Assembly (NCBI GenBank): GCA_040752415.1
Contig: JBFMGU010000012.1
Span: forward strand, 12,783-76,782
Source: Myxococcota bacterium
GTDB lineage: Bacteria > Myxococcota > JACRCW01
DNA: 64,000 bases
Direction of reading: 5' to 3'
Part shown: positions 36,001 to 39,000 of the stretch, piece by piece
Layout of the letters: each line of letters begins with the position of its first letter
Numbering within the stretch: the first letter of the stretch is position 1
Program-made: the position numbers

Positions 36001-39000
36001 CTCGACGAGGCGCGCGATCTCGCAGGTCGCAGCATGGAGCAGGCGCCCACGGCGGATGCGGATTGGCTCCTGGGTCGCGTGCATTCCGCGCTGGGCGACC
36101 ACGCCGCGGCCGACGAGCTCCTCCACCGCGCCGCCGAGAAGGAGCCGGCGCGCTTCCATCACCCCACGCGCACGACGGAGGCGGCGTTCCAGCAAGCTTT
36201 GGCCCAGGCCATGGAGGCGCTGCCGTCGGCGTTGCGGGAGTACCTGAAGCGCGCACGGATCCGCGTGGCGGAGACGCCCTCGGGACAACCACGGCCTTCC
36301 GCGCGCCGGATCGGGCCGGGAGCGCTGAGCTCGTGTCCCACGCCGCTGCCTGACCTCTCGGAAGCCAGGGATCTCTTCGCGGTCGCCCCCGAGGAGATCG
36401 TGCTGTACCGGCGCAACCTGGAGATCGCCGCGGCCACGCCGGAGGCGCTGGTCGAGCTCATGGCCACCTGCCTGACCCACGAGGTGGCGCGGTTCGTGGG
36501 TCTGGACGCGGCGGGATTCGAGGAGCCCCAACCGCCGGGTGACGCCGAATCCTGAGCTCCGACGGTTGGCGGATGGGTCGCACCCAATACCCGCCGCCAC
36601 CCGATTCTTCCTTCACCGACGCCTGATCCGCTCCCGGAGACCGCCCATGTCCAGCAACGTGAAGAGCACCGGCACCACCCGCTCCGCGCCCAAGGCCGCT
36701 CCCCGTCCGTCGGAAGCGCCGCAGGCTCCCAAGGCGGGCAGCACGTACACCGTGCGCAAGGGCGACACCCTCTGGGACATCTCCCGCAAGGCCTATGGCG
36801 ACGGAAACCGCTGGCGTGAGATCGCCGACGCCAACAAGGCGAAGGTGGGCGCCAAGGGACTCATCCAGCCCGGTGAGCGGCTGCGCATCCCGCAGGACCG
36901 CGGCGCGGACCAGTTCAGCACCCGGGCGCCTTCCGCGGGTCGTGCGACGACGGGAGGCAGCCGCCGCGGCCAGAGCGCGCTGCCCGTGGCGGAGCGCACC
37001 GAGCTCAAGGGCGACGTCAGCCGGCGCATGCACGCCGTCAACACGGCAAGCACGGCGGCTCCCCGCCAGAGCGGTCGTGCGCTGCGCGAGGAGACGCCCA
37101 CCCGGCGCGCTTCCCCGACGACGACGCCAACCGCGCCCGGCGGCGGCACCGCGGTGGCCCGGCCGCAGGCCCGCACCACGCGCGTGGACGGACCGGCTCC
37201 CGCGGGCACCACTCCGCCGCCCAGCGACGGCACGACGACACCGACCGAGCCGCAGACGCCTCCCGGGCTGGGCGTGGGGGCGCGCGGGAAGCTGGTGGAA
37301 CGCGCCGAGCAGCGGCTCAAGCGCGCCGGGTTCAGCCCCGGAAAAGTCGACAAGACCTTCACCACGAAGACCGAGGAGGCGGTGCGTCGCTTCCAGGAAT
37401 CCACCGGCCTCGAGGCCACGGGGCGCCTGGATGACCGCACGCTGCGCCGGCTGCAGGGTGTGGACCGACGGATCCGTCGTCACGGTGGCGCGCTGGTGGG
37501 CCCCGGCCAGAACAGCGGCCGCATCCACGACGTGGAGAAGCGGCTCCGCCGGCTGGGCTACGCGCCGGGCAAGGTCGACGGCGTCTATGACCACGAGACC
37601 GCCGCGGCGGTGCGGGCGTTCCGCAAGGACCAGGGCATCAAGAGCGAGTCCAACCTCATGGGCAAGCGCGCGCAGGAGCAGCTGCGCCACGAGGTCAGCC
37701 GGTTCCAGCACGAGCCGTTCCACAGCCGCGTGAAGGCCAGCCGTGAACGTCGCCGCATGGATGACCGCGTGGAGCGGGCGGCAGCCACCGAGCACGCCGA
37801 CGGGACCCAGGGACTGGGCCGCGGCTCGTCGCGCAGCGCAGCGGTGAAATACGTCCAGGGGCACCTCAAGGCGGCGGGGTATGATCCCAAGCGCACCGAC
37901 GGCGTCTTCGACGAGCGTACCGAGGGAGCGCTGAAGGAGTACCAGCGTCGCGAGGGGCTGCCGACCAGCGGGCGCGTGGACAGCCGGACGTGGAAGCACC
38001 TGCGCAAGGCCACGCTGGAGGCGCGCGACGGCACCAGCCCGCCGCAGACGGTGGGAGAACGCTCCCGCGCCGTGCTGAAGACGGAGCGCATGCTGAAGAA
38101 GCTGGGCTACAAGACCGGCGACGTCGACGGGCGCTACACCGAGGCCACGCAGCGCGCCGTGGACCGCTTCCGTCGTCGCAAGCGGCTGGGCAACGTGGGC
38201 AAGGGCGTGGGAAGCGGGACGGTCAAGGCGCTCCAGAAGGCCATCCGCCAGAAGAACAACCCCTTCGGCAAGCCCGTCACCATGACCGGCTATCGCAACG
38301 GCGTTCCCTATCCCGTGAAGGTGGTGAAGGTGGACGGCTACTACACCGGCGTGGCCACGGCGAAAGCGTACAAGCGCATGGAGGCGGCGGCGCGTCGGGA
38401 CGGCATCGACCTCGACATCGTCTCGGGCTTCCGCACCATGGCCAAGCAGCGCGAGCTCTACAACCTCTACGGCCCGAGTCGCGCGGCCTATCCGGGCTAT
38501 TCCAACCACCAGAACGGCAGCGCGCTGGACCTCAACGTGCAGACCGCGCCGGGCAACATGGCCGTCGGCGTGGGTTCCGTCTACAACTGGCTCGCCCGCA
38601 ACGCGCATCGTTTTGGTTTCAGCCGCATTGCCAGCGAGGCGTGGCACTGGGAATACCGTCGTTGACGACGAAGCGGCTCCAACGCGGTGCTACGCTTAGC
38701 CCTCCGTGGCGAGCCATCCTCCAAACAAGCCGGCCAGGGTGAGCATCCCGAGCAGGAGCCCTGCCGCAATCCGCCGCACCGCGCGTCCGGGCGGTCGTGG
38801 CAGCAGGAAGAGCCCCGCCACGACGACGTTGAGAACCGCGTTCGCCACGCCCAGCCAGCGATGCACCTCGAGCACGCGGGAGAGCTCCGGCGCGCCCGCC
38901 GCAAAGTCGCGGCCCTGACTCCAACCCGTCACGGCGGCCGCCACCGCGCCCAGTGCGCCGCCCAGCGCCATCAGGCGTTGCGCCGTCCCGTCGTCCGCGG

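Follow-up and report, generated by a model that had tools for sequence, protein, structure and literature searches.

Signal-less peptidoglycan-binding hydrolases as candidate cargo of the T3SS* secretion system in Myxococcota

Genes for PG_binding_1 proteins without a secretion signal, often led by a promoter that also stands before needle-like and rod genes, accompany the type III system T3SS* in Myxococcota, and this pattern of peptidoglycan-binding (PG) class, promoter, and T3SS* is real and phylum-wide. One such gene, g00797, lies in the stretch of 64,000 nucleotides that we analyzed (the window), which belongs to a genome of 11.0 Mb (68.9% GC, 96.8% complete), hereafter G000. We judge it probable that the signal-less PG_binding_1 hydrolases, g00797 among them, form a set of antibacterial T3SS* substrates defined by a sigma factor. 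The FliA-like sigma factor of the T3SS* cluster would transcribe the needle-like and rod genes and the dispersed cargo genes from the promoter GCAAC-N16-CGATAA. The cargo would be held in the cytoplasm and then exported via SctRSTUV by its unstructured, Ser/Thr-rich N-terminus. Once exported, it would bind peptidoglycan by its repeats and cut it with mixed specificities, for which amidase, CHAP, M23, GH19, GH73, SLT, VanY, and Tlde1-like domains are observed. As late T3SS* substrates, such enzymes would account for the published T3SS*-dependent lysis of prey.

In the literature consulted, which includes PMC10849154, PMC10196010, and PMC9098779, T3SS* is described as having no needle or secretin and as required for prey lysis; its effectors are called unknown in publications as late as 2025 (PMC10433427, PMC12075869, PMC12428579). 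The published Myxococcus xanthus system is without a known substrate, promoter, or needle, and no T3SS* substrate or promoter was found named in the literature searched, subscription papers and preprint supplements being outside that search. The PG class offers good candidates for this long-sought cargo and makes the open question directly testable, and the promoter motif together with the N-terminal signature described below narrows any myxobacterial genome down to a short list of candidates. To our knowledge, type III effectors otherwise act on eukaryotes, so wall-directed cargo would represent a type III system turned on bacteria. New lytic enzymes can also be drawn from these hydrolases.

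The PG_binding_1 proteins of G000 and the architecture of g00797

The genes of G000 (8424) were called with a hexamer model of its own, so their starts can be wrong, and the signal calls rest on a hydropathy proxy applied to these starts (the highest mean hydropathy of any 10-residue stretch within residues 1-40). PF01471 gives 22 matches in 11 open reading frames, one of which (C395) is truncated at the end of its contig and holds part of the domain. None of the 11 proteins has a hydrophobic stretch (values of at most 1.27), a Tat motif, or a Cys in the first 40 residues, and nine are STQNP-rich, meaning that these residues make up at least 0.33 of positions 2-31. An earlier note on this DNA had described the proteins in these terms, with 10 of 11 counted as signal-less, and the description holds. 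The combination of STQNP richness with no hydrophobic signal, which we call the signature, occurs in 1252 of 8039 G000 proteins (Fisher p=2e-6), and 2525 of the 8039 have a hydrophobic h-region. Among the 5514 signal-less proteins alone, the STQNP enrichment of the PG_binding_1 proteins gives p=5e-5.

Named catalytic domains on these proteins are GH19 (C195, on a four-repeat scaffold like that of g00797), M23 (C281), and VanY (g00797). The proteins on C232 and C28 have weak Tlde1-like matches (E about 0.003, below the cut-off), and those on C483, C50, C499, C5, and C392 matched no named catalytic domain. Two further proteins listed in the earlier note, on C208 and C243, carry GH46 and CHAP. 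The contrast it drew with other wall enzymes is present but less clean: among 32 other cell-wall-enzyme homologues, 20 have an h-region and eight bear the signature, three of these eight belonging to the same CHAP/GH46 class and others being probably wrong start calls.

The gene g00797 (36647..38665, + strand) encodes a signal-less protein of 672 residues with a LysM domain, four PG_binding_1 repeats, and a VanY-type (M15B) peptidase. Residues 1-32 (36647..36742, +) are rich in Ser, Ala, Pro, Thr, and Lys, include one acidic residue, and form a candidate type III export signal. They are followed by the LysM domain (residues 34-82; 36746..36892, +), a disordered linker rich in Pro, Thr, and Arg (36908..37216, +), the four repeats (37283..38257, +), and the catalytic domain (residues 571-670; 38357..38656, +). 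An AlphaFold model from a 39-row alignment has a mean pLDDT of 81.6, and residues 1-22 and most of 88-190 fall below 50 and appear unstructured. The N-terminus is thus predicted to be unstructured, Ser/Thr-rich, and acid-poor, as would be expected of a T3SS substrate.

Both active-site motifs of the catalytic domain, SxHxxGxAxD (residue 619) and ExWH (residue 664), are complete. The best matches in sequence and fold are the LdcB and VanY carboxypeptidases, which score alike; the lytic enzymes Ply500 and LysB4 score below them. By its motifs and modeled fold, g00797 is an M15B carboxypeptidase of the VanY/LdcB/PdcA type. Given these scores, it most likely trims the terminal D-Ala from stem peptides, as an accessory wall-editing member of the set rather than a lytic one. 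Lysis by this enzyme alone, and with it the dissolving of prey walls proposed in the earlier note, is unsupported for g00797.

The same two motifs occur in VanY, VanYB, and M. xanthus PdcA according to PMC4083426, and MXAN_0560 is labeled pdcA in a supplementary table of PMC11980068. PdcA was characterized as a DD-carboxypeptidase rather than as a substrate of a secretion system, and g00797 differs from it in having an extra LysM domain and linker. A Myxococcaceae protein, L148, combines PG-binding repeats with VanY as g00797 does (34% identity), and we infer from architecture and position that it is the PdcA orthologue. Among the other VanY-domain paralogues of G000, starts are lipoprotein-like or uncertain, and the promoter is absent.

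A search for homologues of g00797 gave 101 proteins, 85 of them close (P0122-P0206), or 82 after three from G000 were dropped. All but one (81/82) lack a hydrophobic N-terminus, and 49/82 bear the Ser/Thr-rich signature. The four-repeat scaffold is common to the 82, on which VanY, GH19, CHAP, M23, GH25, and unknown C-terminal domains are exchanged.

A promoter common to needle-like, rod, and hydrolase genes

The sequence GCAAC-N16/17-CGATA(A/C) lies upstream of the needle-like and rod genes of G000, adjoining the gene for a FliA-like sigma factor, which probably reads GCAAC-N16-CGATAA. In other genomes, Archangium included, 36 of 56 needle-like genes have the motif no more than 140 nt away; needle-like loci of Anaeromyxobacter have a sigma-54-like box in its place. 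For scoring, a matrix was built from 30 of 31 chosen needle-like loci of other genomes, its seed pattern having been informed by viewing upstream regions that included PG genes. It replaced a first matrix that had been seeded after the same kind of viewing.

With the other-genome matrix, the 11 PG genes rank 11, 19, 28, 32, 45, 62, 95, 100, 543, 981, and 2955 among 8156 genes, and they outrank other genes by promoter score (Mann-Whitney p=1.5e-7). The four best are those on C483, C5, C499, and C195, precisely the genes that had been placed behind the needle-gene promoter in the earlier note. They are followed by C28, C392, C232, and g00797, and the genes on C281, C50, and C395 score weakly. 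CGATAA is also the top one of 2079 hexamers upstream of the 11 genes (4/11 versus 70/8140). A score of 9 is reached by 1/32 of the other wall-enzyme homologues, and no promoter was found for any of the 11 LysM proteins that lack PG_binding_1 (scores of at most 1.2). Within the candidate set proposed originally, the LysM-only proteins are less well supported as T3SS substrates than the PG_binding_1 members. Co-regulation with T3SS*, as judged from the sequence motif, is indicated for the PG class and to a moderate degree for g00797.

The promoter of g00797 is a moderate match (GCACC-N17-CGATTC; 36578..36609, +; score 8.8, rank 100) located 37 nt upstream of the start, and a scan for sigma-70 sites found none upstream of this gene. 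Directly before its -35 box is a CGGATG hexamer (36570..36575, +), which is found upstream of 8/11 G000 PG genes and might possibly mark an activator site. However, the hexamer (CGGATG/CATCCG) does not reach significance once corrected, and other genomes show no enrichment of it. The gene upstream of g00797 (35479..36555, +) encodes a TPR plus zincin-like protein and has no promoter match. Among the PG genes, such a neighbor occurs only here and before the paralogue on C392; the loci of relatives examined gave no support for it as a chaperone.

Besides the PG genes, 21 G000 genes score at least 13. Seven of them code for proteins with a Sec or lipoprotein signal, and having the promoter is therefore not the same as being T3SS cargo. 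In a Myxococcaceae genome (G104), genes with the motif upstream are the needle-like one, a number of small ones, one homologous to the DUF1521 protein gene of G000, and one for a chaperone, but not those of the export apparatus, which is the pattern expected of late substrates. In another genome (G024), the cluster sigma factor was not found, and promoter scores are low throughout.

Distribution across genomes and routes of export

We searched 301 genomes for SctV, PF01471, and flagellin, recording up to 20 PG matches per genome (the top value thus means at least 20). The table holds 296 of them, G000, the unpublished G166, and three unlisted genomes being out of it, and the comparison omits nine whose SctV scores were intermediate. 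Four or more PG matches occur in 137/177 T3SS*-positive versus 4/110 negative genomes, and two of these four negatives hold other T3SS* genes. T3SS*-positive genomes are larger; between 4 and 7.5 Mb, the counts are 29/41 versus 4/89. Because kin are not independent, the co-occurrence is to be taken as a pattern, not a test. No PG_binding_1 match was found in 18/177 T3SS*-positive genomes, mostly small ones. The genome G001, considered as a counter-example, was rejected as such: no SctV*, sigma, or needle-like gene was detected there, yet SctN* is present at 91%.

For comparison at the gene level, 17 T3SS*-positive genomes (11 without flagellin) were chosen among those with matches, and 16/16, 30/35, 30/59, 30/35, and 30/44 of their matches were examined. 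The negative set comprised 33 genomes with 50/58 matches examined, from which 47 genes of 30 genomes remained. After four 5'-cut genes were dropped, there were 95 positive and 47 negative genes; the nine from G001 and G003 were treated separately. Among the matches listed, a signal peptide is predicted for 1/95 PG genes in T3SS*-positive versus 16/47 in negative genomes, and the signature is borne by 47/95 versus 3/47. Promoter scores of at least 9 are likewise found, among these matches, for 38/95 versus 2/47 and of at least 13 for 28/95 versus 1/47; in the controls, the reverse strand gives 2 and 0 and shuffles give 0-4 and 0-1. Of the 38 promoter sites in the matches listed, 34 sit 15-60 nt before the gene start, and 29/38 promoter-led genes bear the signature versus 18/57 of the others. 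Within the same matches, 57/95 genes in T3SS*-positive genomes have no promoter and 48/95 no signature. Domains found in the 38 promoter-led proteins are amidase, VanY, CHAP, M23, GH19, GH73, SLT, and C39; others have none that is named.

The window contains a complete flagellar cluster, with flhA at 1260..3335 (+), whereas T3SS* genes lie on other contigs, and flagellin occurs in 60/177 T3SS*-positive genomes. Export by the flagellar apparatus, raised as a caveat in the earlier note, might therefore be considered. However, the class is not restricted to flagellated genomes: of the T3SS*-positive genomes that have no flagellin, 10/11 contain a promoter-led PG gene. Only 3/31 flagellated T3SS*-negative genomes reach four PG matches, and in nine such genomes the signature occurs in 2/17 PG genes and a promoter score of at least 13 in 0/17. 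The flagellar late genes of G000 score at most 1.6. As a general explanation, flagellar export is refuted, and for the set at hand we regard it as highly improbable. The caveat is largely removed, as the class follows T3SS*, not flagella.

The promoter can also be taken as the starting point. The exact motif has 67 sites in eight T3SS*-positive genomes (7 for the reversed-pattern control) and none in four negative genomes. Fifty of the 67 sites were examined and led to 49 distinct downstream reading frames (two matches gave none, and some calls far from the site are probably wrong), of which 48 lack an h-region and 31 bear the signature. Pfam searches with 47 of them identified PG-binding amidase and C39 enzymes, LysM proteins, and M23, together with thermolysin-type (M4), subtilisin-type (S8), and M91 proteases and two DUF1521 proteins; 30 of the 47 matched no Pfam family. 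This mix indicates that wall enzymes are a minority of a larger regulon. We take DUF1521 to be the GDPH autocleavage domain of NopE. The DUF1521 protein of G000 contains GDPH. NopE proteins with a GDPH autocleavage domain are T3SS-secreted, according to PMC6506597.

The hydrolases could share the sigma factor of T3SS* and still be released by another non-classical route, such as vesicles, partial lysis, or a different exporter. The regulon includes Sec and lipoprotein genes, 5/38 promoter-led enzymes open with LysM at residue 3-4 and so have no free N-terminus, and a signal-less Corallococcus LysM-GH19 protein is described as non-classically secreted in PMC10875029. What speaks for T3SS* instead is that 48/49 promoter-first products are signal-less, that many resemble the N-terminus of the needle-like protein, and that residues 2-25 are richer in Ser/Thr and poorer in Asp/Glu. 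We therefore give release by another route a low probability. A paper on outer membrane vesicles (PMC4158809) has no mention of peptidoglycan or LysM.

HrpH/HopAJ1 of P. syringae and flagellar FlgJ are wall enzymes whose genes share the regulation of a type III system by an alternative sigma factor, and in part this system also exports them. By this precedent, T3SS*-exported helpers might remodel the predator's own wall rather than be directed at prey. Since no dedicated secretin was found in G000, the cargo could end in the cell's own periplasm; moreover, g00797 and PdcA are carboxypeptidases, and no adjacent immunity genes are evident. However, HrpH/HopAJ1 and FlgJ stand for one to three own-wall helpers, whereas G000 has at least 10 diverse enzymes. 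So large a number in each genome, with catalytic domains that can be exchanged and that target many kinds of bond, is more than the opening of a hole in the own wall would require. The regulon also contains proteases, and T3SS*-bearing genomes of 1.3-3.4 Mb have no PG_binding_1 match. In favor of own-wall action, T3SS-coregulated lytic transglycosylases that help translocation are reported in a 2007 paper by Oh, to go by its title, and in PMC3338808. Against it, T3SS* mutants fail at prey lysis, according to PMC12075869. On balance, we consider own-wall remodeling an unlikely account of the set.

Secretion machines, known systems, and the needle-like protein

In addition to the flagellar cluster, G000 carries a scattered second type III set, with SctV (C138), SctQRST (C143), SctU (C278), SctN (C491), SctJ/O (C157), and SctL (C493), so that both export apparatus and ATPase are present. 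T3SS* genes lie on C138, C143, C157, C162, C278, C401, C491, C493, and C517. Of the two clusters in G104, the T3SS*-type one is the better match to them, and nearly all genes of the Myxococcus-type T3SS* cluster have G000 orthologues. These include the SctI, J, L, N, O, Q, R, S, T, U, and V of the "needle-less" M. xanthus system (MXAN_2434-2464). TPR chaperones and a FliA-like sigma factor are likewise common to both (as compared via a Myxococcaceae genome), as is the lack of a dedicated secretin. Unlike the M. xanthus system, the G000 genes are spread over at least nine contigs and are accompanied by a flagellum, and CpaB/RcpC (Kil) was not found; two secretins only were found in G000, neither of them dedicated. 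T3SS* locus tags had no match in four supplements of PMC8844925, a study with genome-wide start-site data, and the developmental RNA-seq table of PMC11980068 gave no coherent co-regulation (MXAN_2434, 2437, and 2438 are not listed there).

Signal-less hydrolases with PG_binding_1 are typical effectors of type VI, type IV, and extracellular contractile injection systems (T6SS, T4SS, and eCIS) as well as typical phage endolysins. TssC and eCIS do occur in Myxococcaceae, which lends such an origin some appeal. However, TssC, VirB4, and the eCIS tube were not found in G000 (96.8% complete) nor in G001/G002, and the PG genes stand singly among housekeeping genes with genome-like GC. These alternatives accordingly seem very unlikely to us. 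The wall-degrading T4SS and T6SS effectors of Xanthomonas and Lysobacter, including Tlde1, likewise combine PG-binding with exchangeable catalytic domains and have no signal peptide. G000 differs from these in having no VirB4 or TssC that could be found and no adjacent immunity genes evident, and in the N-terminal position of the proposed signal. The original proposal that the proteins are T3SS substrates thus draws support from the phylum-wide promoter common to needle-like and rod genes, from the co-occurrence with T3SS*, and from the failure to find TssC, VirB4, or an eCIS, the "dissolving" of walls by g00797 excepted.

Secreted wall hydrolases of predators are known in LlpM and the myxobacterial GH19 lysozymes, and C195 also carries GH19. 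LlpM is secreted but dispensable, according to PMC10433427. The redundancy of at least 10 enzymes would explain the little effect of single mutants such as llpM.

Contig C162 carries a rod-like gene and genes for the FliA-like sigma factor, a TPR protein, and a 167-residue needle-like protein. The last has no PDB match in sequence or fold and no clear Pfam or NCBIfam match, and its model is poor (pLDDT 52.6). HrpF is weakly matched by 3/74 members of the needle-like family, and an Atlas cluster with 11% PF09392 (at 0.89) is a weak lead. The TPR gene is a conserved neighbor, with 49 nearby TPR matches in 82 needle-like loci. A predicted complex of the TPR protein with the last 25 residues of the needle-like protein scores 0.80, compared with 0.01 for the best control; the mark applied to such scores is reached by 116/157 solved and 2/215 mismatched pairs. 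At least 94% of the contacts are the same between runs, with partner pLDDT values of at least 59, but the pair may reach its score through resemblance to needle-chaperone complexes already solved. The chaperones YscG and PscG hold the needle C-terminus, and the predicted G000 complex resembles that hold. On these weak matches and the predicted complex, it is plausible that the C162 protein is the needle subunit (SctF).

We tentatively extend this to a broader proposal, although we think it rather doubtful as a whole. T3SS* would not be needle-less, its first gene being a divergent SctF with a YscG-like chaperone. Together with a translocator-like protein, it would be an antibacterial injectisome, working in many lineages without a Kil pilus, through which prey cells receive a polymorphic, sigma-defined set of proteases and wall hydrolases. 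The needle-like family also occurs in a second T3SS-like cluster and outside Myxococcota.

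Genes at and around g00797

The gene g00797 (window 36647-38665, forward strand), which encodes a protein with LysM, four PG_binding_1 and VanY domains, is flanked on both sides by copper-resistance-type genes (window 28724-34620 and 51773-59661). Based on inspection of their translations by eye, these were named as multicopper oxidases, P-type ATPases, and TolC-like proteins. The window, which comes from a myxobacterial lineage, also carries a complete flagellar gene cluster with one flagellin (1-19777); flagellin is present in 94 of the 296 tabulated genomes. Contig C168 (55823-56569) encodes another FliA-like sigma factor, the third in this genome, which shares 37% identity with flagellar FliA and lies outside both the flagellar and the type III secretion clusters.

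The hexamer CATCCG/CGGATG is found 76-116 nt 5′ of the start in eight of the 11 genes for PG_binding_1 proteins, compared to a background of 18%. The g00797 copy, CGGATG, lies at window 36570-36575, and seven other genes of this set are arranged likewise. Enrichment of this hexamer was sought in other genomes, and none was found.

Additional genes associated with the needle-gene promoter

Strong copies of the GCAAC-N16-CGATAA promoter precede genes for five large lipoprotein-like proteins (C489, 25819-29055; C92, 17261-19345; C223, 55715-57880; C401, 47773-49713; C13, 16712-18595). Contig C401 (41200-43724) also carries a promoter-led gene for a 423-aa protein with two hydrophobic segments, neighbored by a TPR chaperone gene and a promoter-led 158-aa gene. 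We consider this protein translocator-like, in contrast to descriptions of the Myxococcus-type system (T3SS*), which present it as operating without a translocon.

A DUF1521 protein with a GDPH motif (C517, 3746-4942; promoter score 13.3) is likewise encoded beside a TPR chaperone gene, and a homologue resides within the T3SS* cluster of a Myxococcaceae genome (G104). In genome G214, the C-terminal domain of a promoter-led PG-binding protein (L213, 766-1755) matches Pfam ATLF, a zinc-peptidase fold family.

T3SS* and needle-like proteins in other lineages

Genomes of Myxococcota family f10 (e.g., G020, G046, G051, G103, and G107) span 1.3-3.4 Mb at >90% completeness. They retain the export-apparatus protein SctV*, as well as the sigma factor in those tested for it, and searches of them for PG_binding_1 and flagellin matched neither. 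It is possible that this family is a host-associated lineage that puts T3SS* to another use.

At four Anaeromyxobacter-type loci (L051, L056, L065, and L079), a sigma-54-like box replaces the promoter motif at the needle-like paralogue. The C-terminal motif of the needle-like protein is retained in records from Acidobacteriota, Chitinophagaceae, and Proteobacteria (L039, L042, L048, L055, and L059, among others).
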